Positions 1 through 61,896 are shown, numbered from the whole stretch's first letter. The stretch is DNA of 63,914 bases, filler included, from Folioceros fuciformis (GCA_049999805.1; 5 parts of 5 records of this genome joined end to end with filler, not necessarily neighbours in it), one strand, 5' to 3'. Numbers and translations: made by a program. Notes: generated by a model from the letters alone, not told the origin.

Positions 1-458
1 AGGTCACTCACTACCAAGCGGACACCATATTACCTTATGTATGGTATGTCGCCAGTGATGCCCATCGAGTTTGAGGTACCAACCTACCGAATCATGGAGG
101 AAGAAAGGATGAGTGCAGTGGATAGTCAACTAGCTCGATTGAAGGGGTTCATGGAGTACGAGGAATAGAGGGAAGGGGCAGTGTGCAAGAGACTTTGCGC
201 ATACAAGAACAAAGGAAGAGGAGGCATGACGCAAAACTCCGGAAGCGAGACGAGTTAGCACTAGGGGACTCAGCCCTCCTGTATGATAGCCGATATATAG
301 ACTTTCTAGGGAAGCTTCGCCTACGATGGATGGGGCCTTATGAGGTAGTCCGAGTGTATGACAATGGATCAGTACAACTCAAGGAGTTGGGAGGGGGCTG
401 GCTGCCGACAAGAGTGAATGGATGGAAGGTGAAGAAATATTGGCAGCCTCATCATTAG
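1..458 (+). mobile_element. Ty3/gypsy (Athila/Tat-like) integrase C-terminus, degenerate and truncated by the window edge
   Basis: Frame 1 reads RTPYYLMYGMSPVMPIEFEVPT and hits a stop at about 166. After a frameshift it continues GKLRLRWMGPYEVVRVYDNGSVQL..RVNGWKVKKY, the GPY/F module. Confidence 0.85.
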
Positions 459-1889: not shown

Positions 1890-4311
1890 CCATGCTCTTC
1901 ATCTCAGCAACTTCCATGCAAAATGCCTAGGCAGGGAGCGTCTACTAGGAATGCACGTAATCTAGACACAAATAGGAGAGCTCATCGTGCACGACAAGTC
2001 TCCAATTCCTTTGTACCACTAGATACCATGCTAGACCTATACGATCAGAACTACCCAGAAATTTGCCTTAAACGTTTTGCACAAACCCATTCTAGTGGGA
2101 GATTAAGAGCTCAAAGTGCACATAGAAAGCCAATTAAGGATAGATTATATAAAGCACGTTGTCAACAAAGGGGACATAATCACAATCTACGCTACGAAGC
2201 ACGTGAATTGCCCCCTATCGAGTCTCTCTTCCAACCTAGAACCACAGCAACACAACGTAATTAGCAAATAGATAGAAATTCAATTCCACAAACTAGCCAA
2301 GGCATTGCTGACAGGGCCTTGCCCACAATGACTCATGTGGAGAGGACTCTGTCACGTTTGCTGTCAAACTAGGAAGTGCTGAAGATCAGAGTTGACGATA
2401 TGAAGACGGAACCACGAACAGCTGATCAAATCCCTTGGTTTTTCAAAGCGAAGCTACAAATAATCAAGAATCTTGTGGCTTCTATCACACAACAATTGTG
2501 TGATCTGCACACTGCAACACGAGGGAGCATTGTACAAACCCAAGACGAGGGAGAATTCAGCCTACCAATTTTGTCCTCGGCTAATGGCTTGCAAAGCTGA
2601 AATTTCCGCTGCACAACACAAGCGGGAGCGCCCTGCACCAACACGGGAGGCCATCAGGATCTGAAGCGCTGCAACCAAATTGGTGCCCTTTCACAGCATT
2701 GTGTCCCTTGCACGTTGATAGGTTCTTTAGAAGAGTTGCACCTGTTTAGCAGACCAGGACATGGCAGTTAGGTCAAGAAATGAAACGTCATTACCCTCCT
2801 TTCTCTAAACTAACCTGCATAACGTTTGGCCAAGTGTTAAACTAAACCATGAAGACTTTGATGAGGAGGTTAGCAAGAGAAGGCTAGGATAAGTCTCTAT
2901 CCTTTCCTCCTCCTGCTACCCCCCCAGCAAATCATCCCTGCACTCTTGGTCAGTTTGAGATCAAAACATGATGCATGACCTAACATGAATGTTGCAAGAT
3001 ATTTAGGTATACCAGCATCATCTTGAAGCCGTAGCTTTCAGGTGTTCTATTAGATCTGCATGTCCATTGCACAAATCGATGCACTAGCTCAACAGTTTGG
3101 TCAGTTTAACATTAGACACAAGCCAAAGCCGAATCCCAAACCCATAAAAATGTCTGGTCCAACCTTTACCTCTGAGCTAAAGGAGAAAGAAAGATCGTTT
3201 CAATGGGAACCAATATCATGTTTGGCGTGTTCGCATCAAGGCCATCCTGCTGGCGCGAGGTGTCTGGAACATTGTGGATAGAACTTACGCAAAACCAAAC
3301 CCTACTGCCACTGGAGGAAAGAAGCCGACAACTAACGACATTGCCAAGTGGGACCTCCACATCAACATTACTGTTGCTCTCCTAATCAATGGCCTGGACG
3401 TGGACCTTGTGCCAGATGTCGAACATCTCACAGATGCTGCTGACATATGGGATCAGCTGGAGAGGATATATAAAAGTCAAAATATGATGAGTCTCTGTGC
3501 CATACAGACAGAGCTGTACACATTGAAGATGAGGGAGGGAGACAAGATCTCGGCACATACAAGCCGATTTTGTCAACTACAAGCACAGATTACCTCGCTG
3601 ACTAGCGAAAAGATACCTGAGTCACAGGTTGTGGCAAGGTTACTTTCTAGCCTGCCCCCATCTTATCAAGCTTTCGTCACAACATAGAATGGACCTGTCA
3701 AACCTAGTCAAGCTACTAGAGGTTCTGCAAGCACAATCACATGTGAAGATGTGATTGGTGCTTTGTACCAAGAGGAGCAGTCCCGTTTGAATTCTGCTAG
3801 TGTATTGTGGAGTGGTACTTGCACCCAAGAACCACCAAGGGCCACACTTCCCCCTTATTATCGTCGTAGCACTAGGGTTCGCTCCCAAAGGAGTGAACTA
3901 GTGTGAAGGTTCCCCACAATCTTCCCCACATTGCCCAAATCTAATCCTATCTATCAGCCGGCTCCTAGACCTAACCACACTACAGCAAAAAGATCAGAAC
4001 CCTGTCTTTAACACCAACCACAACCCCAGTTGAATGAGGACTCAGCATCATCCTCAGCTCCCACTTCCAGCTCCTGGTATCAGCCTCCTCAGCAGCTGAG
4101 AGGAGGCCCTAGCTCTGGCCTCGACCTCCACTCTCATTCCTAAATGCTAGCCACCTCAACAGCTGATTGAGAACTTCAGCCCCAGCACAACAACTCCAAA
4201 CTCCAGACCTCAAGTCTCTACTCCAGCACTCGAAGTCTCTACTCCAGCACTTCTCCAGCACTTCAAATCTCTGCTCCAGCACTTCAACTCTTCAGCCCCT
4301 TCACCATCACA

Positions 4312-4807
4312 TCTCACTCCTAGATTTTGGAACACAACAGCCCCTCACTTGCAGTCCTTGAGGCAGGGATGTGCAGACCCAGGCTGGATAGCCTCCTTGG
4401 CTCACAGCCCTGCAATCCATCACCTTGGAAACCCCTTAGGGACGTCAAGGTACCCCAACCACCCAACCAACCTGCAAGAAAGGTCAGCCCCTGCGGATCT
4501 GGCCACCCAGACCTTAGCGATTTTGGGAGCCGCCACGTTCCCCTAGTGGCATGGGGAATCAAGGCTGAGGTGCATCTGCACACTGGATTAATCCCTCTAA
4601 CCCTGCTGCAGCCTGCACACAAGGTCAAGGGCATTCTTCACCAAAAAAAGCCTCCCCCTCAATGAAAGGCCTGGCCTCTTATACTCCCTTGGCCAGGAAC
4701 CCCTGTCACTGCCTAACCAGGTCAGCGCGCCTCATACAGAACACTCCACTCGTCAAAACCCTAAACCTAACTCCGACCTAATCCTAACCCTAACTTTGAC
4801 CTAACCT
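4312..4807 (+). repeat. About 0.5-kb dispersed repeat, second copy at 62350-62837; ends in telomere-like CCTAA/ACCCTAA units
   Basis: Direct visual alignment of the two copies; the ORF track gives near-identical translations (4327 vs 62364; 4320 vs 62351). Confidence 0.9.
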
Positions 4808-5079
4808 TGCTCGAATCTAGGGGTGACAAGAACAAACATCGAGGGAACCCCCTCATTCACCAAGGGAACCTCCTACACAAGTCGACCAGCCACACCCCAT
4901 GTATCATGGCATATATTGTCTCCTTGGTACTGTCTGGGGTAGGAATTACATGGCTTGCATGCCCCTCAGTGCCCTTTGCCACAGCGATCGAGTTGCTCAC
5001 AAGGAATAAACCCCCCTGGGCTTCCCCTCGCTAGTCACAAGCAACGCCTACACATCGACCCTCCCTCTACTTGGCCAAC

Positions 5080-7600
5080 CTGATCTCCACATGCCCCACA
5101 AAACCCCTGCCATCTACCTGCTACTTGCTTGGTTCCGGCCAATCTGCCCGCCGCCTAGCTGCCTGGATCCAAGTGCCAACCCCTTGCCTGGCCTGCCGAT
5201 CAACCCACCTCAATCCAACTTGCTCGCCAGCTAGTTGCGACCCAGCCTGCCTGGTCAGTTGGTCTAGATCTTGCTGCCTGCTGGAATGTGCGGCCTGGAT
5301 CCTGACTGGAATGGGCTGGCCACGGCGTGCCTTGGCGATCCGCGCAGGCAGCCACCCCAGCTAGCCCGCCTCCTGGATCCGGCACCTGCAACCAAATTAG
5401 TCCGTCCAGACTGCCTTGGCGACCCAGCCTCCAGCAGCACACGTCTTGCCTGATCCACTCCGGCCTACCCAAGCCCATCGGAGCACCTTGCCCCCGACTG
5501 GGGCCTCCACCGGGGCTAGCCACCACGATCCAACCTGCCACCTGCTGACCTCCAGGCTAGATCCACCCCAACGTCCTGCGCAACCCGCCAGTCAGGTCAG
5601 CCAGCCTCCTGCCTGCCCAGATCTAGTCGCCATCCGCTACTTGGGATCTTGCAGCCAAGCCGCTGCCTGGCTTTCGGATCCGGCCTCAGTGAGCCTGCTG
5701 GATTCACCCGCCAGCCAACAGGCCTTCCCCAGCCAGGATTCCCTCCCTGGCCAACTACCGCCTTGATCCGCCTTAGACTCACCTGCCAGCCATCACAGCT
5801 TGGATTAGTTCGAGGCCCGCCTGGCCTAGATCCAGCGCCGCCTCTGGCTGCCTGCCTGGCCGGCCAGCGCCTGGACCCTACTAGCCCAAAGTTTGGGCTA
5901 TCTGCCTCGTCGCCTCTAGCTACAGCCAGGCCGGTCCCCTGGCTGGCTAAATCCAACCTGCCAGGCCTGCCTGCCTTCCCCGACCACTTGCTCGCCCAAG
6001 GCCGACTGGTCTGCCAGCTTGCTGGGCTGCCTGGCGATCCAGCCAGCGCCTGCCTGAACGGATCCACCTGTGAGGTTGCCTTTAGCCGACTTACCATTCC
6101 AGCCATATCCGCCCCCTGTAGCGTGGCTGCTTTGGCAACAACTCAGCCAGCCCACCAATCTGGCCACGGTCCAGCCAATCAGCCTGGCTGCCTGGATCCT
6201 CCGTCCCCCAGAGGGTGCAAATCGGCCTCCTGCCTTTCGGATCCGGCTAGGCAGCCAGCTTGCCCGCTTAGAAGCCGGAGGCCAGCCTGCCTGGCTGCTT
6301 GAGTTCCTACAGCCACGTCGGTGCTTGGCTTCCGGATCCAGCCCCGACTACCTTGGATCTTACACCGCTCCCAGGCCTGGATGCAATGCCGCCACAGGGC
6401 TGCCGTGAACCCGCCGCCGATGTGGCCGGCCAACCAACCAGCAAGCTTGGCACCCAAGTCAACCCGCCTGCCTACATGCTGGCCCCTGGATCCATTCGGA
6501 TCCGCAGTTGGATCCAACTGCGGCCTGCCACGCATGCGGATCCGCCTGTTGGCTAGATCCATCTTCCGGCCTAGGCTCCACCGGTCTAGGCCTGGATCCA
6601 CCAGCCAGCCAGCATCCAGCCCGTCAGTCGCCTGCGATAGGCCGAATCCGCCTCCGCCCGCCAGCCTGCCACGACCAGGCCACCTGCCCAACCAGATGGA
6701 TTTGCTGCTAGGTTTCGCCAGCACCCTACCAACCAGCCTGGATGGCTCTTGCTTCGATCCACCTTCCTAGCTGCAAGCTTAGATCCGTTGCCAGGCCGCC
6801 CCGCTGATCCAGCTAGGCCTGCCTGTCGATCCGGCCTCCTGGCTGATTGGATCCGCTAGCCCATCTTCCCCCCATCCTGCTAGCCAGCCACCGCAGCCCA
6901 TCTTGCCGGTGCCTGATCTTGCTAGGCCTCTTGGAGCCTGCAGCCCAGGTGCCCTCTAGCCCTGACTAGCGCCTGCCACTAAGCCGCCTGGCTGCTACTT
7001 GCCCGGAGCTGCCATCGCCAGCCTGCCTACCTGATCTCCAGCAGTTGGGCCTAGCCTGGATTAGGCCTCCCCGGATCTCAGATCGCCAGCAACCAGCCTG
7101 CTTGGCCTGGCCGTGCCAGGTTGGACTAGCCACAGCCAGCCCGTCTCCAGAGTCGGCCAGCAAGCCACCCAGCCCCACTGTCGCCGCTGGCTGCCTGCCA
7201 TCTTGGTCCATCCCGTTGCCAGCAGGCCGGGCGACTGCCAGCCCCTTAATCGGCCTCGGACTCGCCTGTCGACTAGTCGGGCTGTCATGGCTGGTCCACC
7301 TATAGCCGGTCCGCTAGTCTACTGCCGCTGCTTTCCCAAAGGCTGCAAGCTGGCTCCTGCCTGCTGCCGGCGAGACCCCTCGGCCGGCCATCACCTGCCA
7401 TCCACCGGCATACTGGCTGCCTGCCTGCCAACCAGGATCCGACCAAGCCTGGCCCTGCTCCTGGCCTATCCAGCTGCCTACTCTCAGGATCCTCAACCCC
7501 CCGGCGCACTTGGGCTAGGCCATGGCAAGTCTAAGCACGACACCCACACGCCTATGCCCAACCCCTTTTGCACGCTCCCGAGGCCACAACTTGCCCTCAC
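5080..7600. repeat. GC-rich low-complexity tract built from GCCTG/CCAGC/GGATCC motifs
   Basis: Dense reiteration of short motifs. The many overlapping Pro/Ala/Leu-rich ORFs on both strands have no recognisable domain. Confidence 0.7.
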
Positions 7601-10600
7601 ACGCCCGGCTTAGGGCTCCACACACGCCGGCATCCCTCTCCACGGGCACACCCTACCCCCTACTTCACATTTTCCACGGCCACGAGTTAGCTAGACGATT
7701 GTTGACTTTCTAAACTGCACCACCACTATCTCCTGATCATCCTCTTTAATCTAGCCTTATCTAACATAGTTTCCTAATTACCTCTCGAAGGAATTCTATC
7801 AAAACTCCAAAAAAAACAAATACCACCCATTTTCTAAGAGGCCTATCTACCATGTGGTCTCCACATATACCTAGGAACAAAGCAAAAAAGGTGTTAGCTA
7901 TAGGCTTTCGACCTAACAAAAACAAGTCCAATGCAACACAACCTCCAGCAAGTGGCAAACCTGACAGTGGTTCGTCATCCTCCAAGAGACCAGGGAATTG
8001 TAACTGGTGCGGAATTGCTGGTCATTGGGCCTGAGAGTGTAAGAAGAAGAAATCTGGTGAACCTCAACGTGCTACTAAGAGTGTTGCGAATGTCACCATT
8101 AAAGACAGACAATCAGGTGACATCAAACCACCGGTGAAGATCCTCACTGTGTGTCTTGCCCGTTCTGTGCAAAAGGAAGGGAGATGGTACCTTGATCCTG
8201 GTGCAACCTCACACATATGCAAGGACAAAAAACAGTTCTTCACTCTCGATTCACGCCAGTCCACATCAAAAGTGCTTTTGGGTGACGAACAAAACAAAAC
8301 CAGTTTGCAAATACAAGGACAAGGTATTTGCAAGTTCAGTCTTCATGATGGATCAATTCTGAGCCTACAGGATGTGCTGTACGTGCCATCAATGGCAAAG
8401 AACCTCCTGTCCCTCAGTAAACTAATGCAGTAGAGGACCTACCACATGAAGGCTGCAGATGGCACAAGCCTGTTTTACAGAAGTATTGACCCATCGTTGT
8501 ACGTCTTCAAAGGCATTGTGGAAAATGATCTGTACAGGCTAGACATTTTCACACATAAGCAGGTAGCGGGTTTAGCATCCACATATACACAAAAATTAGC
8601 AATCATGTGGCACTCTCCTTTGTCATGTGAACCAGCACAAGTTGGTAGATATGTCTCTACAGGAATGTCATAAGGAACCTTTACCTTGATGGTTTAAGGA
8701 CTTCCCTTCCTGTGAGGCTTGCATCATAGCCAAGCAGAAGCAACATCCATTTCCACACCTGGCCTCATACAGAGCAAAGGCTGTCTTAGAACTTGTGCAC
8801 GCAGATACCCCAGGGAAAATCCAAGTACCTTCAGTAGGCAGTGCTTTGTACTACCTAAATATCATAGATGATTACTCACGGTGTACCTGGACGTACCCTT
8901 TACAATTCAAGAGTGATACCTTCGCCACATTCCAGGGTTGGTTTGTAAGTGTACAGCGCCCGACAGGAAATTCAATCAAGTATTTAAGGACTGATAATGG
9001 CATAGAATTCTTGAATACAGCCTTTGACGCATTCTTACATGAACATGGTGTACAAAGGCAATTGACTGTTCCATACACGCCACAGCAGAATGGTGTGGCC
9101 GAACGCAAGAACCAAACCCTCTTACCCATGACACATAGCATGCTTCTCTGGGCTAGATTACCTCAAAAATTCTGGGCTACATATGTACTCAATAGACCGT
9201 TTACCAGCTCCGTCCCTTTGAAGACACCTTTTGAAGCCATGTGGAACAGAAAACCAAGCTTGCTGCACTTACGGGTCTTTGGATCTCGTGCTTTTGCACT
9301 TATACTTGAAGAGAAGAGGTGGAAGTTAGACCCTAGGGCTCGAGCTTCGTTGAATATAGTGAAACCTCCAAGGCATACAATCCTACCTCACAGACAGCTG
9401 TTCTGGCCAGGTCTGTCACCTTCATTGAGCTTACACGCCTTGCTACACCAATTTTTCAGTCCCATTTGGATTATGAGGGAGCCAATTCAGTTGCTGAGGG
9501 AGAAAATCTGGAAGAAGAAACATCTGAATTTGACTTCCTAGATGACGCAGGCCCTAACCCAGCACAAGTGATACCGGCTTCAGCAAACCCTGATCCTGCC
9601 CATCCAGATCCATATGAACAGGACCCTGCTGACCAGGCACAAGGCTATGTAGACGATGTTGTAAACGTTCCTTGCAATGAGGACAACTTTCATGATCTGA
9701 ATTTCCAGGAAGATGCAGCACAGGCTGATGATCTAGGAGGCTTACCTGATGCTCTTGATGTGCTGGATACTGGACCATAAATTGAGGAAGAACCCCTACT
9801 GTCGGATGACCCTCCTCCAAGACGTTCCAGCAGGCACAAGCCACCTCCTGAAGAATGGAAGGAGCCTAGATACCAGTCCATCGATTTCCGCACATCTTAT
9901 GCTGAAGCTATACATGCTGCATCAACCACAATTGACTTGGAACCTAAATTGCTAAAAGAGGCTTTTTCAAGCCCTGAAAAAGACAAATGGAAATTTACGG
10001 TTGATGACGAGTTCAACAGCCTCGTCAAAAACCATACCTGGAAATTGGTGGACTTGACGCCTGACAGGAAACCCATCTCTTGTAAGTGGGTATTCAAATT
10101 AAAGTTGAATGACAAAGGTGAGATAGCCAGATACAAGGCGAGACTTGTCACCAGGGGTTTCACACAGGTCAAGGGACTAGACTACCAAGAAACCTTCTCT
10201 CCTATCGTGAGATCACAATCAATCTGAATGATTCTGGCTTTAGCTACAGAATATAACCTGGAATTGTATCAAATGGATGTGTGCACGGCATACCTCTATG
10301 GAGCACTAGACAAGGACCTCTATATGACACAGCCTGAGGGCTATGAAGATAAAAATCATTCCAAGAAGGTGTCCAAATTGTTGAAGACCATCTATGGTGT
10401 GAAGCAAAGTGGTCGAGTCTGGTACTTGAACATCCACATTTACCTCCTTAGCAGATCATTCAAATAGAGTGCAGCTGACAGCAATGTTTACAGGCTCACA
10501 AGAGGCAAGGAATATGTCGTGCTCGCCCTCTACGTCGATGATGTGATCCTAGCTTCCAGCAGCACACAACTGTTAGAAGAAGTGAAATCCATGTTGAGCA

Positions 10601-11746
10601 TCAAATACGAAACGAAGGATATAGGAGAACTGAAATTTTGCCTAGGTATCCAGCGAGTTCGTGTGAGATCTGAGGGGCTTCTAATGATACACCGGTACCA
10701 GTACATCCAAGATATCTTGACTAAGTTCAAGCTAGACCAAGCACGACCAGCAACTACACCCTCGGCCATGGGAGTTAAACTCACAAGCCTGCAATGTCCA
10801 CAATCTGAGGTAGAGAAAAGATAAATGGCAAATGTGCCCTACAGACATGCGATAAGAAGCCTTATCTTTGTAGATAACTGGACTCGTCTAGATATTTAGT
10901 ACTTCGTGAGAACACTCTCCCAATTCCTAGAAAACCCTGGGCGCGCGCATTGGGTAGTTGCCAAAAGAGTGTTCTGTTACCTTAAGGGCACCCAATGTTA
11001 TGGACTATGCTATAAAAGCAGTGGACAAGAATAGCTCACCTTAAAGGGATTCACTGATGCCGATTGGGCATCTGACTGTGATAGCATGAAAAGCGTTTCG
11101 ACATATTGTTTCCTTCTTGCGAATGCGGCCATCAATTGGAGTTGTAAAACGCAAGCCTCTATCGCCCTCTCATTCACAGAAGTAGAATACAAGAGCTTGA
11201 TTGATGCCTCAAAAGAGGCAGAGTGGGAAAGGACTTTCCTTGCATACTTGGGCCAGCAGTAGATGATGCCAACTCCTCTTTTGTGCGATAATATGTCTGC
11301 CCTGGCTCTTGTTGCAAACTCTAGGTTTCACGCCCGAACTAAACACATAGAGATACAACACCATTATATCATAGATGTGGTGGAGCATGCTGTTGTGAAA
11401 GTCGATTATGTCCACACAGATGAGAACACAGCAGATGTGTTGACCAAGGCCCTGCTCAAATCGAGACATTATCAGCATATGGAGGGCCTTGGACTCTATG
11501 ACCTAACAGGTTACATGCTCAAGGACGCAAAAAAGAGTGCACAGTATGTATCTGGTGGGTGTGTGGGGGTGGGAGCCTATGCTTTCTGATTGGTGATTGA
11601 TGCTCCTACAGCTTGACGTAGTTGTCACCAGCCTCCAACACTGCCAAGCCCTTACTTCCTACAAAGATCCATAGGCACATGTTTTAACAGACTGTCAGTA
11701 TGTGAGGGAGCACAAGAATCAAAGGCCAAGTAGGGCGGATGAAGCC

Positions 11747-12211
11747 TTACGTGAATTTAATCGCCCTGCACTCAGCCGCAACTTCAGAGCACTCTTTGAT
11801 ATGATTCAGCAGCGCTGCCACTGCCTGAAGCTGACCAACCAAGCTCATCTCTCCAAGTTCGTCCCGAGTCAGAGGCTGCTCTGCAGCCTCCTCAGTTATT
11901 TTTCCCCAGCGCAGTTGGCCCTCCATACTGACTGCGTACCCTCGAAGCTTTATGGATTGCCCAATAGTGTGACTGTCGTCCCAGTCGTCGGAAGGGACGC
12001 CCTTGTGCAATCTAGGGCTCTTCCTAGCTGGTGGTGGCGATGTTCTCTGAAGAGCAGGTCTCTTCCCCTTGGCCTTCGTCGCAGATTCGGCTTGCAGGCT
12101 GCTCATCTCGCTTGCTGTTGACATGGCGGTGTACAGCAGGAGCTGGATGACTGTGAAGCAGGTGAACTGGATGATGGCAATCAGGGTGGAGACGGGAAGG
12201 ACGACCGCCAT
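11747..12211 (-). CDS. Hypothetical ~154-aa ORF (hydrophobic N-terminus, basic SPPPARKSPR segment), probably a TE accessory ORF
   Basis: Stop-free ORF from ATG at 12211, lying downstream of the methyltransferase remnant on the same strand. No domain recognised. Confidence 0.3.
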   Translation of the reverse strand: MAVVLPVSTLIAIIQFTCFTVIQLLLYTAMSTASEMSSLQAESATKAKGKRPALQRTSPPPARKSPRLHKGVPSDDWDDSHTIGQSIKLRGYAVSMEGQLRWGKITEEAAEQPLTRDELGEMSLVGQLQAVAALLNHIKECSEVAAECRAIKFT

Positions 12212-12499
12212 CTTAAGGGCTTTGGCACATTTGCTCTCGAGTTCAGTGGGTGGTGCGTACCGAGTTCCCGACCATGTGAGTGCACGGTTTTTTTTAGGCT
12301 CATGAAGCTTAAGAGGGAGTGTTAGAATATATACGTATACGTACATATTGGGTAACCTACACTCGCTTAGGTTATTGTTTATAGACCGTATGTGATCATT
12401 GGACATTTGACCGTATGTGATTAGGTTTAGATATAAAAGACATATGAGACCCTTGTTATTAATTCAATCACTTTTTGTTCTGCTGTCGCCGTCTCCGTT

Positions 12500-13545
12500 C
12501 TATCCAGAACATTTACACTCCGAAACCTTTTCATCCTCCAGCAATTGCAGGCGAGGGTTTCGCTTCCCTTCAGCTTCTTCAAGCTGGAACGCCAAGCCTG
12601 TGGTCACCAGCCATCTCAGACTGTACAGATCAAATGCCTGCTCAAGCATCCTGCATCTTGCAGCTTCTGTGATGCCCATGGTCTGAGTGCCCTTCTTGAA
12701 AAACCCCATCGCTTGCTCGCGTTCCTCAACATTGAGCTCTCCAAGCTCATTCCCCTTCAAATCCAGAATCACACCATCCCCTCCTGGCCTGAAGGCATAA
12801 GATTGTGGTGTGCTCACCAGAGTTGGCGATGCCCTTCTGGCTTCTCCTACTCGATTCATAGAATAAAATGGCAGCTTGTCCATCCGCTTCACCCGTTGTG
12901 AGCATCTCTCCAACTCAAGGATGTCATCCACGACTTGCTGCTTCGGAGTCGTCAAATTCATGTGCTGCCTAAACCCTCCAATCGAGCCACATTTGTCCAG
13001 TAACTGCAAAGCCTGTGTGCATATGAGCCAAACTGCACCGCGTCCATGATTAGCTCATTGCCGAACCATGACCGAATCTCCTCATACAGAGACTTGACAG
13101 TTGGACGTCTGTCCATGGCTGCACACACATTCTCCAGAATGTACTAGCATTGTGGATTCGCAATCTGGACTTCTAACACAATTCGTGCAAGCTCAGCAGC
13201 CAACGAAACGCCTTCATCTTTGCCTCTGCTTGCAATCGAAAATGTCTTGCATTCCTATCCCATGATCAACATATTCACCGGACTCAACAAGGCTTCTAGC
13301 TACCACTTCCCCACTAGGTTCACGTATTTGGGCAGCCTGCTTTGGCAGCCTCGATTTGCTTCCTCGCTCAAAAGAATTGGGTACTTAGGTTCTGATTCTA
13401 GCCACAGCTCGAGCCTTCTCGTCCTTCTCCACTCAGGTATATTTGCATGCCTTGCTTGACGCCACAGTGCAACACCGCTTCCAGGCCACTGCTGATTCCT
13501 TAGCAGAGCTCCATCACATGGATGCCTTCAGCGCCCACCTTCCAT
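12500..13545 (-). pseudogene. Degenerate C5-cytosine DNA methyltransferase (DNMT3-like), TE-associated
   Basis: Manual minus-strand translation gives the motifs in canonical order: I IHVMELC*GISSGLEAVL, II KYT*VEKDEKARAVA, III RLPKYV, IV MLIMG*ECKTFSIAS, VI YILENV, VIII DAVQFGSYAHRLCSYWTN, and IX/X EEREQAMGF..T..ARCRMLEQAFD. Several stops and frameshifts. Confidence 0.85.
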
Positions 13546-13928
13546 CGTACTAGAGCATTGTTGATGCATCGACCTCCTACCTTGGCAGGCCTCAGATCTG
13601 GGATCGACCTCTCAAGACATGTCTATGAGATTCCATGGTTGATTCTCCTTCCTTCGCTGGTTTTCCTGAACGCTACCTTCATCCAAATACTCTAAACGCA
13701 CAACCTTGAGCACACCCTTCTGTTCTCTTGGCTTCAGCATCTCCAGAGAGGATAACTCCTGCGTTTCCTCCCACATCTCATGTCGATGCTCACTCTAAGC
13801 ACTGTGGGCAATCATAATGCTGCCTGTCATTCTTGTCCTGCTCTTCCTACCACTCCTGTTCACCCTCACGCGAATTCGTGCAACATGCGTGAAATCTCCT
13901 CTCCACCAGAATGGTCTATAGAAGGCTT

Positions 13929-14130
13929 CTACGTGCAAGGTATCATCTGCCATAGCAGGACGGGATCAACTCCCATAGCAGGACGGTGAGTTCCATGCGA
14001 CCCCAGCAAGACATCATATGTCTTTGCACTAGTGACTAAACATCTCACTTCAACAATGCTGGCATCCTTCGTACTAGGCTTCAACTCAATCTTCACGGGC
14101 TTCCTCGTCATTCCTAGCACCTGTTCCTTG
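13929..14130 (-). mobile_element. Retroviral-type aspartic protease C-terminal remnant
   Basis: LGMTRKPVKIEL...VRCLVTSAKTYDVLLG resembles the C-terminal half (DxLLG) of retropepsin-like proteases. The catalytic DTG half is not seen. Confidence 0.5.
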
Positions 14131-14747
14131 GGTGCTTGTAGAGGTGGTGATGTTCCGTGTCTAATGTCCTCTCAAAACCTTGATGCTTGGGCAGTGTCTT
14201 GAGAGCACTTGATGCTTAGGCTGTGAGCACCCAAGATGTGTGCCACAAGGAAGAATTAAGCTTGTATCTTAGACAAAGATGGGAAGTTCTCTTATTTCTA
14301 TTAAAGAGGGCCCATCCTTTTTGGGCCAATTATAGCACACACCTTGGGTGCTCACATCCTCTCTATGCTCTATGTTTGACTGTCCTTAGCTCCATGCTAG
14401 GTCGCCTTTTATACTCAAGCCTTAGTACAATCTTAGTAAATATTTACTTAAACTCCAAGCTAATATCTATACCACTCACTCCCTAGTGCATGCTCTTATC
14501 CATACTCTTAGTAAACTCTGTTACTAAACACGCTTTCTTGCTTGTACCGTCGACAAACTAGCGTCGTTCTTCTGTACTTGCCGAAAAGGGTAAATCCTAC
14601 CGCGTGCGAGAAGTGAGGAAATGAAGTAACTGTACAGTACATTACACAGCTTCCATGGCCAGAGTTGGCGGTGAGAAATTCTAGCAGAGTGCGGATTTCT
14701 GCCAGAGTCTCCTGGTAGACTCATGTGCCCAGAGCGGGTGCTGAGCG

Positions 14748-17700
14748 ATGGCCACAGTAGGACAGCCGGATCCGTTGTGGACTCAACAAATTGGTCTGCA
14801 TACAGAGATTGTGCGAGGAGCTTCTGGGCATCTCGTGTCGGGGAGTGAACGTCTGGCAAGTAAAAGCGTCAGGTGCAGCAGTTCAATGAGACCGGCAGTT
14901 CAACTTTTGACGAAATGTGTAGCTGGGGACGGGTTTTGCAGGGATGCTCGTTACCAGGAGCAGCAGCACTTGTGGCAACAATCATTTCTGGACCCGACGA
15001 TGTGGTGGTACAACAGGCGAGATACGAAGAGCTCGCGTTGGCGTGACTTCCGGCGGCGTAGGGCCTCCGGCGAGGTACTGTTGTTGAACATGGTTGATGA
15101 GCAGCTCGTTTCCTTGGACATGGAGGTGGGTGATGATGCCTCTCCTTCTAAGCCGAGGTCTTGGGATAATCCTGTACCCGGAAGGCGTGCGCAATCGCAA
15201 ATGGGCTCCAGGTGCAGCAGTGTAAGGAGCCCATTTTGTCTTCCGATAAGCTGTGGGTGGGCACTTGTGGCAACAATTTTTTCTGGACCCTACCATGTGG
15301 TAGGACAACAGACGAGATGAGAAGAGCTCCCGTTCGCCTGACTTTCGACGTTAGGGGCCCGGCGGGGTCCTGTGGTTAAACGGCATTTTTAAGCCAGCTT
15401 GGGTTGATGAGCGGCTCGTGCCCTGGGACATGCAGATGGGTCGTGGTGCTTCTCTTTCTCAGTCCAGCTATCCGGATAAGTGTGAACCGGGCAGGTGTGC
15501 AGGATCGGAAATGGGCGTCGTTACGGCCGTAACCTTGTGCACGCTATGTCAGCAGGGGAAGCTTCGTGAGGCCGGCGGAGCCCTGTCATCTCTTGCACAG
15601 ATAGACTCTGCTGTTGCTCCCTCTCTGTTTTGCACTGTGCTGAAACTGTGCACGGCTATGAAGGACTTGGTGGTGGGGCGCCGTGTTCATGATCGCATGG
15701 TCAGTCTTGGGTACGCGTCGGATGCATACCTAGGGAATCATATCTTGCGTATGTATGCATGTCGGGGTAGGGTAGAGGAGGCAATGGATGTGTTCACCAG
15801 GATAGCCAAACCAGATGTCATCACTTGGGGTTCCATTATCTCTGCGCATGCTAAACATGGGAACTCAAGATGGCAATACAACTGTATCATGAGATGCGTA
15901 GTTCAGGATTGAAGACCAATGGCCACGTATTCGTAGCTGTCCTTCAAGCTTGTGCTTCTGCCGCTGACTTGGAATACGGCAGAACAGTGCACTGTGATGT
16001 GTTGCACAGTGACATTCCCACTAACCTCTGTGTTGGCAACTGCCTGGTGGACATGTATGCAAAATGTGGCGAAATGAAGAACGCACGCCAGGTGTTTGAC
16101 ACCATGGCCACAAAGGACGTGGTAATATGGAATGCCCTGATATCTGGATATGTGATATGCGGTGAACTGAAAAATGCACACAAGGTTTTTGATGGCATGA
16201 ACTCAAGGAATGTGGTTTCACGGGATGCCCTGATAGCTCGATATGGGTCTCGGACATGAGGCACTCGTCCTGTATGGGCAAATGGAGCAGAATGGCGTTA
16301 TTTTGGCTGACCACGTTACATTTGCTTGCCTTCTAAAGGCCTGTGCAAGCACTGTTGCCTTACAGAAGGGCAGGCAGCTGCACTCACTGATCGTAGAAAG
16401 AGGGCTGCTGGATAATGTAGTGTTGGGCAACTGCCCAGTGGACATGTATGCAAAATGTGGTGATCTGAAAGATGCACGCCAGATTTTTGACAGCATGAAC
16501 ACAAAGAATGTTGTGATGTGGAATGCTCTGATATCTGGGCATTCCAAATCTGGTGAACTGGATGATGCACGCCACGTTTTTGACAGCATGGCTACAAAGG
16601 ATGTGGTAACATGGACGTCGCTGATTGCTGGGTATGCACAGCAAGGACTCGGCCAAGAGGCTCTTCTTGTATTTGAACAAATGGAACAAGAAGGCCTCAT
16701 ATTGGCGAACCATTCTACTTTTTCTTGCCTTCTGAAGGCCTGTGCAAGCACTGGTGCTTTACACAAGGGCAGGCAGCTGCACTCACAGATTGTGGAAAGA
16801 GAACTGCTGGATAACGTAGTATTGGGCAACTGCCTGGTGGACATGTATGCAAAATGCGGTGAGCTGGAAGGTGCGGGCCAGGTCTTTGACAGCATGAATA
16901 CTAAGGATGTGGTGACATGGACCGTCCTGATATCTGGTTACGGTTCTTGTGATGATGGTCACAAGGCTCTAGCCTGTTTTGAAGAGATATTAATCGCTGG
17001 TATTCAGCCCAATGACGCCACATTTACTTGCCTGTTGGTAGCTTGCAGTCACGGGGGGCTGGTCTACGAGGGTCGAAAGCACTTTGATTCCATGTCTCAA
17101 CAGCATGGCATCGAGCCAACTCTTGAGCACTACAACTGCATGATTGATCTTCTTGGCCGTGCAGGCTGTTTAGATGAGGCAGAGAAGATGCTGTTAGCAT
17201 GCAACGGTCAAGGTAATGTTGTGGGATTGACTTCTTTGCTAAATGCCTGCAAAAGTCACGGGATTATCGAGAGGGCGGTATGGTGTTTTGAAGGAATTGT
17301 TAGGTTGGACCCTCAGGACTCGGCTGCATATGTGCTCATGGCCAATGCCTACGCAGATGCAGGTATGTGGGCCGATGGAGACAGGATTGAAACACAGAGA
17401 ATGAAAGCGGGGGGAACAAGTTACCAGCAATGGCAAGCATTGAGGTGAATAAGCAGGTACATCAGTTTCTTGCGGGAGAAAGAAGGAGTGATATTGCTCT
17501 AAAGGTGGAGAGCACGAATGTACGTTTGAAGCAGGAAGGAGACCACGTTCCTCACACGAAGTTGGTTTTGAAGCCAGTTTGTGAGAAGGAAAAGGAAGAC
17601 GTACTTTGTTGGCATGCTGAGAAGCTAGCCCTGGTGTTTGGTCTCTTGAACACTCCGAGTGGTATACCTCTGGTGGTGACAAAGAATCTACGCATGTGCG

Positions 17701-17822
17701 CTGACTGCCACAGTTCCACAGAGATCATGTCAAGGCTGGAACAGAGAGACATTGTTGCAAGGGATGGGTACCGTGTACATCGATTCACAGCTGGTCGTTG
17801 CAGTTGTAAGGACCGACCGTGA
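14748..17822 (+). pseudogene. PDF-motif + PLS-class PPR + E + DYW:KP RNA-editing factor (copy 1), intronless and frame-disrupted
   Basis: Two WxxFFxDPxxWWDNR..PDF(R)R..GEVLWL motifs (14973-15108, 15268-15417). P/L/S repeats ([29 protein letters not shown]) from ~15600, then an E domain. DYW 17415-17822 has KLPAMASIEV, CWHAEKLA, KNLRMCADCH and ends CSCKDRP*. Stops at 15301 and 15352; frameshifts at ~15250, ~15868, ~16243 and ~17412. Confidence 0.92.
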
Positions 17823-20960: not shown

Positions 20961-23283
20961 ATGACGGTGGCCACAGGAAGGCAACCGAACACGTTGTGGA
21001 CCCAACAGATTGATGTGTGCACTGGGATTCAGCAAGGGGTTCCAGCTAACCTGGCTTTGTGGAGCCAACCCCTGGCAACAAAGCCTCCAGGTGGCAGCAG
21101 TGTAAGGAGCCCAGCACTTCCACCCATGAGAAGATGTGTGGATGGGTCATGGGGGTTCCACCGATGGTCGTTGCCACGAGCAGGAGCACCTCTGGGAACA
21201 TTGTTTTCTGGATCCCAGAATGTGGTGGGACAACAGACGAGACAGGACGAGCTCCCGTTCGCCTGACTTCCAGCCCAAGGGGTCCGGTGAGGTGCTGTGG
21301 TTGGACAACATGTTTAAGCTGGCTTGGGTTGGTGAGCAACTCTTTTCCTTGGATATACAAAATGGGCTGTGGCGTCTCTCATTCCAAGTCCAGCTCGCCG
21401 GATGAACCTGAATCTGACAGGCGTACAGCATCGGAAATGGGCTCCAGGACCGTCAGTGTAAGGAGACCAGCACTTCCACTTTCGAGAATATGTTGGAGTG
21501 GCGAGGGGTTCCCCAACCTTGGTCGTCGCCAGGAGCAGGAGTAGTTGTGGCTACAATTCTTTCTGGAGCCTACCATGTGGTGGGACAACAGACGAGCGAA
21601 GAAAAGTTTCAGTTGGCCTGACTTTCGGCGTAACGGGTCCGGCGAGCTGCTGTAGTTAAACGACATGGTCAAGCCAGCTTGGGTTGATAAGCAGCTCGTT
21701 TCGTTGGATCTGGGGGTGGGCGATGCTGCCTTTCCTTCCGTGTTCAGCTCTCCGGGTAAGCATGAAGCTCACAGGCGTTCAGCAGGGTCGGGAATGGACG
21801 TGGTTACGCTGTAGACGTGAGCACTTGATGTCAGTAGGTGAAGCTCTGGGAGGACGTTGGAGCCCTGAAGTCTCTGACGCAGACAGGCTCTTTCTATATT
21901 ATGCTATTTCTCCCTCTCTGTTTTGTACTGCGCTGAAAGTGTGCACAGCTAAGAAGAATGGTGGCGCGAGGAGTTCATGACCTCACTGTCAAACTTGGGT
22001 ACGAGTCGAATGATCTTTGGGGAATCAGATCTTGCGCATGTATGCATGTGGAGGTAGGCTAGAGGAGCCAATGGATGTGTTCACCAGGGTAGGCAAAGCA
22101 GATGGCCGTTTTCCATAATCTCTGCATATGCTAAGCAGGGGAGGGAGATCCAAGGAGGCCATACATCTGTACCATGACCTGCGAGGTTCAGGGGTGAGGG
22201 TGGATGGATGCCCACGTATTTGTGGCTGCCCTTCAAGCTTGTGCATTTGCCGCTGACTTAGAGTCTGGCAAAAGTGGGATTCCTCCTCACTTGTTTCTGA
22301 GCACCTGCCTGGTGGACATGTATGCAAATGCGGAAAATTGAAAGATGCATGCCATGTTTTTGACAGCATGTGCACAAAAGACGTGGTGACATGGAATGCC
22401 CTGATATCTTGGTATGCAAAATGCAGGGGCTCAGACAGGAGGCGCTTGTTCCGTATGGGCAAATGGAGCAGGAGGGGCCCATTTTGGCAGATAAGTTTTA
22501 CTTTTTCCTGCCTGCAAAGGGCCTGTGTAAGCACTAGTGCCTTGCAGAAGGGCAGGCAGCTGCACTCACTGATTGCCAACGTGGGCTGCTTGATTATGTA
22601 ATGGTGGGCAATAGCCTGGTGGACGTCCATGTATACAAAATGTGGCAAATTGGAAGACGCACGCCAGTTTTTGACAGCTTGTCCACCAAGGATGTGGTGA
22701 CATGGATGGTGCTGGTTGCAGGGTATTCCTAGCAAGGGCTGGGACAAGAGGCGCTTGTTCGGCATGGACAAATGGAGGAGGCAGGCCTCATTTTGGCTGA
22801 CGATGATACTTTTGCCTGCCTTCTGAAGGGGTGTGGAAGCACTGGTGCCTTAAAGAAGGGCAGGCAGCTGCCCTCGCAGATTTTGCAGAAGAGGATTGCC
22901 GGATAACGTAGTGCTGGGCACCTGACTGATGGACATGTATGCAAACTGTGGTGAACTGGAAGATGCGCGCCAAGTTCTTGACAGCATAGTCACAAAGGAT
23001 GTGGTGACATGGATGGCCCTGATATCTGGGTACGGACCACAAGGCGATGATGGTCACAAGGCACTAGCTCGCTTTGAGGAGATGTTAGTTGCTGGTACTC
23101 AGCCTAACGACGCTACTTTCACTTGCCTTTTAGCAGCATAACGGACTGGTCGTTGAGGGTCGCATGCACTTTGATTCCATGCCTGAACGCCATGGGATCA
23201 AAGCTACTCTTGAGCACTACAATTGCGTGACTGATCTTCTCAGGCGCGCCTGGCATTCGGTTGAGGCTGAGAGGTTGTTGTAG
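20961..23283 (+). pseudogene. PDF-motif + PLS-PPR pseudogene (copy 2), heavily decayed, truncated in the E region with no DYW
   Basis: PDF motifs WEHCFLDPRMWWDNRRDRTSSRSPDFQPKGSGEVLWL (~21193) and WLQFFLEPTMWWDNRRAKKSFSWPDFRR (~21548). Fragmented PPR motifs 21900-23280 are colinear with copy 1. Confidence 0.88.
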
Positions 23284-23805
23284 TGCACTCCATGTAGCAT
23301 GGAAGACAAATAGGGGTAAGACGACATAAATCTCAAAGTCACACGTTTGCTTGTTGTAGCAACAAGGCCTAAGATACGTTGAAAATAATGTGAGAGCAAA
23401 TTCATGATCCCAAAATCTAGGCTCCCCGCCCAACAAATCGATGATTCTAAATCCCTGCACCCATCATCGTTCTCGCAATTCAATAAGTTAAACCCATATT
23501 CTTACAGGATAGCAGGTCCAATGTAAGGTACACCATGGAGAAATCTGCAACTGCTCTAAGTAAACTTGTGATGCTAGATTGATTGAGTGAGCAGAATGAT
23601 TCGAAAGATAAAGGATTATTTTTAGTCTCCAAATGAGTCAGGATTATACAACTGAAACTGAAAGTCGGTGCGTTTGCTTGGTTTTGTAGCTTTCACCCAG
23701 TTCCTGTGGCCCAGCTTTGAGTCTGGATATTTGCTACTGTTGCGACGCCAACGTGTTTGTGGTGTCCAACTCAACAGGGTGGAGCGTCGGCCCCGAGTGC
23801 TGGCT

Positions 23806-24896: not shown

Positions 24897-24996
24897 NNNN
24901 NNNNNNNNNNNNNNNNNNNNNNNNNNNNNNNNNNNNNNNNTTAATTAATTAANNNNNNNNNNNNNNNNNNNNNNNNNNNNNNNNNNNNNNNNNNNN
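24897..24996. other. Scaffolding gap with artificial TTAATTAATTAA linker (same linker at 34947-35046, 54136-54235, 61797-61896)
   Basis: An identical 44N + TTAATTAATTAA + 44N block occurs four times. Confidence 0.98.
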
Positions 24997-34495: not shown

Positions 34496-35799
34496 GTGAT
34501 GAAGGGAATCTACCAAGCTAGATAACAGTGGTGCTTTGTCCTATTGAATTTTCTAGTCTACTCCCGTGCCTGCCAATCTAGTCTGGTGTGTGTGTCTTCT
34601 AGTCTGGTCTCTTATGTGCTTAGTAATTTTCTTTGGTATTAGTATAGTTCTTGCACGCATGCTAATCCAGACAAGTAAATATCTGCTAGTCCTTACTTGT
34701 ATGGATTTGCCATTCCATTTTGGTCTGATTTTAAAGATTTTGTGGTTGGCAATTTTGCAGTGAAGGCGGGGTTTCACATGTCCGTGAAACCCCATGGGAT
34801 AGCAACCATTCACCTTCCAAAACAGATAAAGAAGGACACATTGCATATGGAACGCAATCCAAAAAAATAAAGCGACGTAGGTCATCAGGTAGTTTAGGCA
34901 AGGATCTCATGTTTGGCTTAGCAGCTTTTGCTGAATGCCTTGCTCANNNNNNNNNNNNNNNNNNNNNNNNNNNNNNNNNNNNNNNNNNNNTTAATTAATT
35001 AANNNNNNNNNNNNNNNNNNNNNNNNNNNNNNNNNNNNNNNNNNNNTTTGGCTATACTTAAGATAATATTTTATTTAATATCTTATAGTTTTTTAACTTA
35101 TTTGAAGTTTGTAAACTATAGATAGTGATTTTTTACATAATAATCGTATCATTTATATTACAATGATTCTATTAATAATGCACAATTGAGGAGGGAACAA
35201 CATGAAAAGAGTTGAGATGGAGGGAAAAATTAGGACATAAGGAGACAAATTTGAACAAAGGATAAGCATTTGTTAATTCTCTTGAGACTAACAAACACCA
35301 TATAAAAGCTAATAAAGTTTGATGGACTTTACTTTAATAATGTTTGAAATGAAGACTTTAATGTAAGTAGAATACGTATACATTGCTTGGCTTGGAGTAT
35401 AGCCATATAGGCGCTTAAGCGCGGCGCAAGGTAGTCGCTTTCTCAATTCGTAGCTAACTTAACTTATAACAGCACATCTCTATTTTCCACTTGAGGTCCT
35501 TTTCAATAAGATTCTTCGTCAAGAAGGATGCTTATTACAACTGATTTTTTCTTCTTCCTGTGCGTCTTCTTTTTCCTGACGTTTCCTCCACTAGGTGGGA
35601 GACCATAGATGACGCTTCTTCCACCATGTCTCTATCACTCTCTGGGGCTTTTTCCATGGTGGCTTTCCATCATGTCGTAGTTGTAGGTGACTCTTCCTTC
35701 TTTGTGTAGATTGTAGGTCGCTATCTTCCTCTAGGTGATGTTTTAGGAGTAATAGGCCAAATAGGACTGTTCCTCTGTGCATTGTGCGTCCATTTCTTC

Positions 35800-43039: not shown

Positions 43040-46000
43040 CGACCACATCGCCCTCTCCAAATCCCCGTGACTTTTGCAGGCATTCAACGAAGACCTCAGG
43101 CCCACGACATTCCTCTGACCCTCCATTGACAACACCAACTTCTCAGCCTCATCCAAACGACCCGCACGCCCAACAAGGTAAGGTCAACCATGCAATTGAA
43201 GTGCTCAATAGAATAGTAGGTATGATGCCATACAGGTCAGACATGGAAGCAAATTGCTCGCGACCCTCGTAAACTAGACCACCGAGACTGCAAGCTACTA
43301 CAAGGCAAGAAAAAGTAGCCCCATCGGGCTGAACACCGGCAACTAACATGTAGTCAAAACAACTTAACGCTCTACGCCAATCATCACATATACCATACCC
43401 AGATATCATGGCATTCCATGACACCACAGTCTTGGTGTTCATGCTGTCAAAAACCTGGCGTGCGTCTTCCAATTCACCACATTTCGCATACATGTCCACC
43501 AGGCAGTTGCCCAACACTACCATGTCCAGCAGTCCTTTTCCCACGATCTGCGAGTGCAGCTGCCTCCTGCCCTTTTGCAACGCACCAGTGCTTCCACAGG
43601 GCCTTCAGAAGGCAACAAAAAAGTCACATGGTCACCCAAAATAAGGCCTTCTTGCTCCATTCGGCCGTACTGAATAAGCGCCTCATGTCCGAGCCCTTGC
43701 CGAGCATACCCGGCAATCAGGGCATTCCATGTCACCACATCCTTCATGGCCAAGCTGTCAAACACCTGCTGTGCGTCTTCCACTTCACCACATTTTGCAT
43801 ACATGTCCACCAGGCAGTTGCCCAACACCACATTTTCCAGTAGACCACTTTTGACAAGCTCTGAGGGCAGCTGCCTGCCCATCTCTATGGCGCAACAGGC
43901 ATCGAGAAGGCAAGCAAAAGTAACATCATTAGCTATGACGAGGCCCTCCTGCCCCACTTGTCCATACAAAAACAAGCCCCTCAATTCCCAGACCTTGCTG
44001 TGCATACCCAGCAATCAGCGCCGTCTATGTCACCACATCCTTAGCGGCCACTCTGTCAAAAAACACGGCGTGCATGTTCCACTTCACCACATTTTTGTAT
44101 ACATGTCCACCAGGCAGTGGCCCAGCACTACGTTATCCAGCAGTCCTCTTTCGACTATCAGTGAGTGCAGCTGCCTGCCCTTCTGTAAGGCACCACTGCT
44201 TCCACAGGCTTTCAGAAGGCAGGCAAAAGTCACATCGTCAGCCAAAGTGACGCCCTCTTGTTCCATGTGTCCATACACACCAAGTGCCTCTTGGCCAAGA
44301 CCTTGCTGTGCATACCCAGCTATCAGGGCATTCCATATCACCACATCCTTTGTGGCCAAGCTGTCCAAAAAACATTGCGTGCATCTTTCACGTCACCACA
44401 TTTTGCATACATGCCCACCAGGCAGTTGGCCACCACGACGTTCTCCAACAGTCCCCTTGCAACAATCAGTGAGTGCAGCTGCCTGCCCTTGTGCAAGTCC
44501 CCACTGTTTGCACAGCTCTCCCCGCAGGCAAGTAAAAGTGACATGGTCAGCCGAACTGATGCCCTCCTGCTCCATTACTACTCCATAAGACAGCAAACGC
44601 CTCATGTCCGAGCCCTTGGTCAGCATACCCAGCAATTACGGCATTCCATGTCACCACATCCTCTGTGGCCAAGCTGTCAAAACCCTGTCGTGTATTATCG
44701 AGTTCACCACATTTTGCATACATGTCCACCCAGCACTACTCTATCCCAGCAGCCCTCTTTCAACGATCAGCGAGTGCAACTGCCTGCCCTTCCGTAAGGC
44801 ACCCGTGGTCACAAGGCAAGCGAATGTAACATGGTTACCCAAAGTCAGCTCATCCTGCTCCAACTGCCCATACAGAGCAAGAGCATAATGTCCTAGCCCT
44901 TGCTCCGCATATCCAGATATCAGGGCATTCCATGTCACCACACTCTTTGTGTTCATGCTGTCAAAGCGTTGGTGTGCATCTTTCATTTCACCACATTTTG
45001 CATGCCCAGATATCATGGTATTCCATGTCACTACATCCTCTGTGGCCATACTGTCAAAAACCTGGCGTGCATCCTTCAGTTCGCCACATTTCGCATACAT
45101 GTCCACCAGGCAGTCACCTACGAACAGGGGTAGTGGGAATGCCACTGGAAAATCTCACAATGCACTTTCCTGCCAGATTCCAAGTCGGTAGCAAATCCAC
45201 ACGCTTGAAGGACAGCTACAAAGACGTGACCATTTGGCCTGACTCCTGAACGTCACATCTCGTGGTACGGTTGCATAGCCTCCTTAGCTTTGCCGTGCTT
45301 GGTGTGTGCGAAGATTGTGGAATGCCACATGAAGGCATCTAGTTTGCCCACCCTGGTGAACACGTCCATTGCCTCCTCCAGTCGACCTAGACATGCATAC
45401 ATGCGTAAGATAACGTTCCCCAATCATGCATTCCGCTCATACCCGAGTTTGAGAGTGAGGTGATGTACTCGTCGACCCACAACTAAATCCTTGTTGGCTG
45501 CGCACAGGTTCAGCACAGTGTGAAACAGCGACAGAGAAATTGCAGAATCTGATTGCGCCAGAGATTCCAGGGTTTGAACGTCCTCAGCAAGCTTTCCCTG
45601 CTGACATACCATGCGGACGGTTGAAGCCATTTCGCATCGTGCACGCCTGCCAGGTTCATGCTTATCTGGACAGGTAAACTTGGAAGGAGAGGCACCATAA
45701 CCCATGTGCACATCCCAGGAAACGAGCTGCTCATCAACCAAAGCTGGCTTGAACAGGTTGTTCAACCACAGAACCTCACCACAGCCCTTACGTCGGAAGT
45801 CAGGCGAACGGGAGCTCTTCTTACCCCGTCTGTTATCTTGCCAGATGGTAGGTGTTGCCACAAGTTTTTCTGCTCCTGGCGACGACCATCGCTGGGTATG
45901 TCATTCACCCCCACGCTTCGTATCGGAAGTGGAAGTGATGGGCCTCGTGTAGCGCTACGCATGAATGCCATTCGCGATTCTGCACCCCTGACAGATTCAG

Positions 46001-54135: not shown

Positions 54136-54235
54136 NNNNNNNNNNNNNNNNNNNNNNNNNNNNNNNNNNNNNNNNNNNNTTAATTAATTAANNNNNNNNN
54201 NNNNNNNNNNNNNNNNNNNNNNNNNNNNNNNNNNN

Positions 54236-61796: not shown

Positions 61797-61896
61797 NNNN
61801 NNNNNNNNNNNNNNNNNNNNNNNNNNNNNNNNNNNNNNNNTTAATTAATTAANNNNNNNNNNNNNNNNNNNNNNNNNNNNNNNNNNNNNNNNNNNN

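Follow-up and report, generated by a model that had tools for sequence, protein, structure and literature searches.

A decayed, retroelement-borne DNMT3-like cytosine methyltransferase domain in land-plant DNA

Introduction

Retrotransposons that encode a DNA methyltransferase have been reported from charophyte algae and dinoflagellates, as an earlier note on the DNA studied here stated; in the accessible text of de Mendoza et al. 2018 (PMC5890265), these are elements of Klebsormidium and Symbiodinium. An element described there as Gypsy-Dnmt3 comes from Klebsormidium nitens (KnitGypsy-Dnmt3). It holds the only Gypsy-Dnmt3 domain tested according to the same text, and the result in yeast was inconclusive; the domains of the Symbiodinium element, SymbioDIRS-Dnmt3, methylated CG in yeast (PMC5890265, accessible text). 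In the literature searched, dinoflagellates and one charophyte alga are the only hosts for which DNMT3-carrying retrotransposons have been described. The available part of a 2026 preprint mentions "streptophytes (Gypsy-DNMT3)" (10.64898/2026.05.21.726589). Among the partly available sources consulted (PMC5890265, PMC12344493, PMC6453930, PMC10952607, 10.64898/2026.05.21.726589), supplements aside, we found no paper on such elements in land plants. Host DNMT3 proteins carry companion domains, PWWP/ADD in animals and DUF3444 in plants, according to the accessible portions of PMC12344493 and PMC6453930. Here we describe a methyltransferase fragment in a stretch of 63,914 nt (the window) and compare it with these systems.

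Results

Genomic setting

The window is plant-type nuclear DNA with 50% G+C. Pfam scans gave the following elements and genes around the site:

3181 (gag) to about 11589 (end of RNase H), plus strand: decayed Copia element
15355-17822 and about 21000-23500, plus strand: tandem PPR-E-DYW genes
55726-59647, minus strand: second Copia element

The scans also showed ordinary host genes.

The methyltransferase site is on the minus strand, between the first Copia element and the first PPR gene. A single-exon ACS-like aminotransferase at 39157-40293 matches Calypogeia at 57% and Riccia and Marchantia at 52–53%, compared with about 44–47% for seed plants, Selaginella, and ferns. Together, the PPR-E-DYW genes and this aminotransferase support a land plant of bryophyte grade as the host. 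The earlier description of the element as one of land plants agrees with the tandem PPR-E-DYW genes and with an aminotransferase closest to liverwort proteins.

Other features of the window were also recorded. Consecutive long frames on the minus strand at 47491-51720 code for an LRR region (50116-51720), a Roc GTPase (49536-50492), a COR-A domain (48681-49532), and a caspase/metacaspase (47491-48885), a ROCO-like protein to which a Peptidase_C14 domain is apparently fused. Repeats of the PPR-E-DYW 5' leader occur at 15252-15500 and 14746-15400, and further ones at 20965-21680 and 45627-46072. The depth of this leader in DNA runs is 2500–4000, compared with 9–17 for single-copy sequence, with many joints and loose ends, and this depth implies hundreds of copies. 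The first 207 bases (1-207, plus strand, opposite to the fragment) have a weak match (E 0.03–0.06) to the C-terminal part of gypsy-type integrases. Runs of 44 Ns occur in four pairs with 12 bases between them (24897-24996, 34947-35046, 54136-54235, and 61797-61896).

A methyltransferase domain split among three frames

A C5 cytosine methyltransferase domain, nearly full-length and non-permuted, was identified on the minus strand at 13553-12578 using three-frame translation of that strand (14250-12400) and a family profile. Its motifs are in canonical order and are split among the three frames of the translation (an asterisk marks a stop):

About 13530-13480, minus strand, first frame: motif I, "IHVMELC*GISSGLEAVL"
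About 13278-13230, minus strand, second frame: motif IV, "VNMLIMG*ECKTFSIAS"
13143-13126, minus strand, second frame: motif VI, "YILENV"
About 13044-12990, minus strand, second frame: motif VIII, "DAVQFGSYAHRLCSYWTN", including AHRLCSYWTN
About 12730-12620, minus strand, third frame: motif IX/X, "EEREQAMGF...RCRMLEQAFDL"

Pfam searches with 10 separate pieces and with 106 long frames of the window produced no methyltransferase or protease match at the site. Chance was therefore tested through phmmer relatives and the family profile instead. The profile has 354 positions and was built from 109 intact relatives, namely those of 206 fetched relatives with a phmmer match that each cover more than 270 of 351 domain positions. 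All six reading frames of the window were searched with it over their full length, stops being written as X. Only three matches were found, all on the minus strand and collinear, and they span positions 9–348 of 354: 13553-13455 (positions 9–41, E 1.7e-5), 13386-12967 (positions 68–217, E 4.7e-29), and 12958-12578 (positions 222–348, E 7.2e-40). The next best score anywhere in the window was E 0.5.

The translation and the three collinear profile pieces bear out the minus-strand series of motifs I, IV, VI, VIII, and IX/X that had been read from the sequence. The earlier note had also named the lack of a profile hit as an outcome that would count against it, and the profile matches the site with a best E of 7.2e-40. 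Its proposed search against PF00145 turned out differently: Pfam scans of the pieces found no direct match for the window's own translation, and membership of the domain in PF00145 is transitive, by way of relatives that match that family.

Layout and decay of the fragment

The fragment and its parts, all on the minus strand, are as follows:

12524-14155, minus strand: whole fragment, with the C-terminal half of a protease, a linker, and a DNMT3-like domain (multi-copy contigs cover exactly this span)
13947-14129, minus strand: retropepsin remnant, C-terminal half only, "...VRCLVTSAKTYDVLLG..." (tblastn of relatives)
13554-13946, minus strand: linker between protease and methyltransferase, reading frame broken (translation and contig comparison)
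13455-13553, minus strand: methyltransferase motif I, the SAM-binding loop, with one in-frame stop (profile positions 9–41)
12967-13386, minus strand: methyltransferase motifs IV (G-stop-E-C), VI (ENV), and VIII, with three in-frame stops (profile positions 68–217)
12578-12958, minus strand: target-recognition region and motifs IX/X ("EREQAMGF", "RCRMLEQAFDL"; profile positions 222–348 and phmmer)
12500-12523, minus strand: tail unlike the family, with a stop codon at 12502-12500 at its end (other copies diverge at 12524)

The third frame, which encodes the target-recognition region and motifs IX/X, has 159 open codons before the stop at 12502-12500. The methyltransferase is interrupted by in-frame stops at four places (13502-13500, 13302-13300, 13257-13255, and 13146-13144) and by two or more frameshifts, one between 13425 and 13392 and another between 12985 and 12979; with these breaks the window copy is dead and without function. 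Small indels distinguish the window from multi-copy contigs at 12974, 13619, 13939, and 14132, and there is a short tandem duplication in the window copy at 13939. Three of the four indels coincide with frame breaks in the window, which marks these breaks as specific to the window copy.

The downstream truncation point is 12524, and the catalytic Asp motif of the protease would fall upstream of the truncation at the other end. No gag, protease active site, RT, RNase H, integrase, or LTR of the methyltransferase element was found within the 63,914-nt window, and neither was a second copy of the fragment. Truncation of the copy at its two ends accounts for the lack of an LTR pair at the locus; a 32-nt match and a 26-nt inverted repeat were the only repeats around the fragment. 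The first joins 12486-12517 to 1846-1877. The second (92%; 14218-14243 and 14335-14360) is in single-copy flank just upstream of the fragment and may be a hairpin or a MITE-like insert. The CpG observed/expected ratio is 0.54 in the fragment and 0.41–0.67 in its flanks, and the fragment is not set apart by it.

Copy depth in the host

Logan contigs from two DNA runs of the same organism (X1 and X2) were compared with positions 11500-15500. The span 12524-14155 is covered by contigs that are about 86–90% identical to it, with depths of 410–443 in X1 and 612 in X2. Contigs that match the locus exactly have depths of 5–17, and the single-copy ones among them 9–17. Family contigs thus reach 37–49 times single-copy depth, a figure that differs from true copy number and that in part comes from a run (X1) that may be the sample behind the window assembly. 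These depths point to a family in tens of copies in the host genome.

At both 12524 and 14155, other copies run on with sequence unlike that of the window, and in these copies the ten codons after 12524 are open in the methyltransferase frame. The continuation of multi-copy contigs past both ends identifies the window copy as an internal fragment of 1.63 kb. No RNA source was listed for the stretch itself. Family contigs that are about 87% identical to the window copy were also found in a run guessed to be RNA; they are no evidence on expression.

Linkage to a protease and to Ty3/gypsy polyproteins

A retrotransposon pol domain adjoins the methyltransferase on the same strand: the protease remnant is directly upstream, on the minus strand. 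The remnant, the "YDVLLG" stretch at 14129-13947, had no Pfam match when searched alone. In tblastn comparisons it aligns with eight of 207 relatives (P0028, P0053, P0135, P0151, P0152, P0159, P0164, and P0170), within the C-terminal half of their aspartic protease region, and protease and methyltransferase pieces are collinear in all eight. For P0151, P0152, and P0053, the residues that match the remnant fall inside Pfam aspartic protease matches. A protease-like YDVLLG remnant upstream of the methyltransferase had been noticed from the sequence, and the order in these relatives confirms it.

The 184-aa C-terminal frame was searched with phmmer against 1.84 billion representative proteins. 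This yielded 331 matches with E ≤ 0.001 and 61 with E ≤ 1e-10, the best relative having E 3e-20 and 48% identity. Among 20 long relatives scanned with Pfam, Ty3/gypsy RT, RNase H, or integrase was found in 14 and PF00145 in 11; further scans found PF00145 in 10 of 11 and in 23 of 39 relatives. The named relatives are two Marchantia polymorpha proteins (MARPO_0008s0049, here P0170, and MARPO_0020s0163, here P0171), three from Closterium, and one from Sphagnum jensenii.

Two layouts recur. Type A has a CCHC knuckle, an aspartic protease, and the methyltransferase, followed by RT, RNase H, and integrase (P0026, P0030, P0053, P0185, P0151, P0152, P0098, and P0173); the domain order of P0026 and P0030 is CCHC-PR-DNMT-RT(-RH-IN). 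In type B, RT and RNase H precede the methyltransferase, and integrase and a C-terminal PHD finger follow it. Extra domains occur in a few type B members, a Tudor in P0020 and a G-patch in P0016 and P0103. Two relatives, P0191 (Closterium) and P0206, are linked to Copia through a Copia gag or Copia integrase. In an IQ-TREE phylogeny of 46 hand-chosen rows (all 14 PR-linked, 11 unlabelled from their clades, and 20 of 42 RH/IN-linked), the PR-DNMT type separates from the RH-DNMT-IN type with an SH-aLRT of 100. The window is on the PR-DNMT (type A) side, sister to P0098/P0187 (92). A FastTree of 110 rows left its placement open. The NCBI record of P0153, a close member of the family from a contig of 2.4 kb, assigns this methyltransferase to a "Candidatus Obscuribacterales" metagenome bin; P0153 occurs among eukaryotic PR-DNMT sequences in the FastTree, and the bin label is probably wrong.

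A complete type A element is present at a metagenome locus, L001, whose methyltransferase shares 80% identity with P0165, the sequence that heads the query alignment. This locus has direct repeats (5853-6159 and 14600-14906) that are 94.5% identical over 307 nt and 8747 nt apart, the second being cut by the end of the available stretch. Between them, 7829-10999 aligns with the entire Marchantia protein P0170 at 57% identity. The methyltransferase (9890-10945, PR-DNMT) is followed by RT, RNase H, and integrase at 11282-13890. The repeats and the domain order indicate a family of LTR type with gypsy order, as shown on a relative and not in the window's host. A lone in-frame stop at 11192-11194 of L001 separates the methyltransferase frame (9845-11194) from an RT frame in the same phase (11195-12058), and may mark either a boundary for read-through or mere decay. 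The Marchantia protein P0170 likewise ends just past the methyltransferase. In the metagenome search, 77 of 80 loci were only 21–43% identical to the query alignment and had no sign of the element family; most of these look like microbial cytosine methylases. The first cluster of atlas look-alikes is eukaryotic, mostly Streptophyta, and has PF00145, and is recorded here as a lead only.

The proposal that the methyltransferase is borne on a retroelement is upheld by these Ty3/gypsy polyprotein relatives, by the protease-then-methyltransferase order in eight of them, and by the LTRs and RT-RH-IN series of L001.

Similarity to DNMT3

A profile of the methyltransferase domains of 18 relatives was ranked against all solved structures. 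The top structures are DNMT3A (E 4e-24), DNMT3C (2e-22), and DNMT3B (8e-22, about 1e-21), followed at lower rank by DRM (6e-14 to 4e-11), DNMT2 (5e-10), and M.HhaI (1e-9). DNMT3A matches the profile in three collinear segments (motif I; IV–VIII; IX–X). DRM (tobacco, and Arabidopsis DRM2) matches only profile positions 6–136, and does so with the C-terminal part of its chain, in line with the permuted order of DRM. At the family level, sequence comparison thus supports a DNMT3-like, non-permuted domain, the assignment first suggested by the motif order in the window. No Pfam family corresponding to the companion domains of host DNMT3 (PWWP/ADD, DUF3444) was found in the frames flanking the fragment.

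Glutamate at the motif IV proline

Motif IV of the window reads stop-Glu-Cys, with the Cys kept and Glu where Pro is expected. In the family's GW[PE]CQ motif, the Trp is the residue aligned with the stop before "EC". Across the 109 relatives, this position is Pro-Cys in 68, Glu-Cys in 38, Ser-Cys in one, Asp-Cys in one, and a gap in one. The Glu-Cys rows keep Glu-Asn of motif VI in 35 cases of 38 and His-Arg-x-Arg of motif VIII in 36 of 38, and at least 11 changes between Pro and Glu at motif IV are needed on the FastTree. Since Glu-Cys recurs in intact relatives with the other motifs kept, it is a family trait and not damage. The reading of the catalytic motif as xEC instead of PC was therefore real, and applies to 38 of 109 domains. 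A preprint on a deep mutational scan of DNMT3A contained no text on the motif IV proline.

Origin of the fragment

The minus-strand sequence at 12524-14155 is very probably a decayed, truncated internal fragment of a Ty3/gypsy LTR retrotransposon, with a polyprotein of gag-PR-DNMT-RT-RH-IN order and a family in tens of copies in the genome; its Ty3/gypsy class would follow from relatives 35–48% identical in protein sequence. The earlier note had itself named a single-copy retrocopy of host DNMT3 as the competing account. A processed pseudogene of the host's own DNMT3 with no transposon tie would also be intronless, decayed, and DNMT3-like in motif order, and host DNMT3 genes do exist in non-flowering land plants (PMC6453930, accessible text), but it would have no place for a protease remnant directly upstream in the same orientation and collinear with eight polyprotein relatives. 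The nearest proteins are Ty3/gypsy polyproteins, and the C-terminal DUF3444 of plant DNMT3 (PMC6453930, same portion) has no counterpart here, with no Pfam family downstream. Depth at 37–49 times single-copy, over a multi-copy span with other copies extending beyond both ends, argues in addition against any host DNMT3 retrocopy. Protease linkage, depth, and Ty3/gypsy relatives largely refute this origin, which we consider very unlikely.

An element of another class, Copia-type or DIRS-like instead of Ty3/gypsy LTR, is suggested by the Copia element that adjoins the fragment (3181-11589), by the ties of P0191 and P0206 to Copia gag or Copia integrase, and by the DIRS-like repeat structure given for the K. 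nitens elements (PMC5890265, Fig. 4 legend, as accessible). The adjoining Copia element is on the opposite strand, however, and the remnant matches proteases of the PR-DNMT-RT type, with which the window also groups in the tree; the terminal repeats of L001 are plain direct ones, and its domains follow the gypsy order. We regard another class as unlikely. The final 159 open codons, and the contigs of the guessed-RNA run that cover family sequence, might be taken for a domesticated host gene that derives from the element and still functions. The catalytic half, however, is interrupted by four stops in frame and by two or more frameshifts. The contigs, being only about 87% identical to the window copy, come from other copies, and the assignment of their run to RNA is a guess to begin with. 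Because motifs I and IV are broken, domestication is refuted for the window copy and is extremely improbable.

Discussion

In intact members of this family, the methyltransferase would be produced as part of the polyprotein, beside the protease. We infer from sequence that "de novo methyltransferase" may be a suitable label for the family. The enzyme might then methylate the element's newly made cDNA or its insertion site, the mechanism that de Mendoza et al. 2018 proposed for retrotransposon DNMTs (PMC5890265, accessible text). Retrotransposons here carry the kind of enzyme that is normally used for their silencing.

The locus and its Marchantia and Sphagnum relatives indicate that land plants are among the hosts of the family and that it can be abundant in them. 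A more tentative proposal, which we hold to be possible though doubtful, is that bryophyte-grade land plants have live Ty3/gypsy lineages in tens of copies that make a DNMT3-type enzyme within gag-PR-DNMT. The proposal would include an exchange of the near-universal motif IV Pro for Glu in a third of the wider family, at least 11 times and with catalytic Cys, ENV, and RxR kept, a hint that selection, and not decay, altered catalysis or substrate (e.g., nascent cDNA). If such enzymes are active, a transposon-made DNMT3 could supplement de novo methylation in plants where a host DNMT3 also exists. In tractable bryophytes, one can ask whether transposon-made DNMT3 methylates its own cDNA, the host genome, or nothing.

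Among known systems, KnitGypsy-Dnmt3 is like the window's family in having an intronless, non-rearranged Dnmt3-type domain in a multi-copy streptophyte polyprotein of Gypsy type (accessible text). Its host is a charophyte alga, whereas the window's host is a land plant, and copies are few in K. nitens (PMC5890265, as far as available) compared with a depth of tens of copies here. No Klebsormidium sequence was found among the named relatives. SymbioDIRS-Dnmt3 is also a retrotransposon-borne Dnmt3-type domain and, within the accessible account, stands alone in demonstrated de novo CG methylation. It differs in being a DIRS element with a tyrosine recombinase, in its dinoflagellate host, and in an independent acquisition, according to the same portion of the literature.

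Host enzymes of plants share part of this description. Physcomitrium PpDNMT3b (Yaari et al. 2019, PMC6453930, accessible text) is likewise of DNMT3 type with canonical motif order and belongs to a non-flowering land plant. It is a host gene with a C-terminal DUF3444 in that text, in contrast to the window's upstream protease, absence of DUF3444, high number of copies, and Glu-Cys replacing Pro-Cys. Plant DRM2 and tobacco DRM (PDB 7l4c and 4onj) are also DNMT3-related and plant de novo methyltransferases, but DRM is circularly permuted and matches at E 6e-14 to 4e-11, compared with 4e-24 for DNMT3A.

Land-plant relatives that are annotated but undescribed are present in the public Marchantia and Sphagnum proteomes. 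MARPO_0008s0049 and MARPO_0020s0163 are near-identical paralogues on different scaffolds, and our search found no paper that names either. Like the window, they belong to a land plant and have a collinear protease-then-DNMT3-like order; unlike it, they have intact frames and Pro-Cys, and they are about 32–47% identical to the window pieces. The kind of element is already known. Four features go beyond the published description, as far as its accessible text extends: the host is a land plant, copy depth is high, the domain is placed on the protease side, and Glu-Cys recurs.
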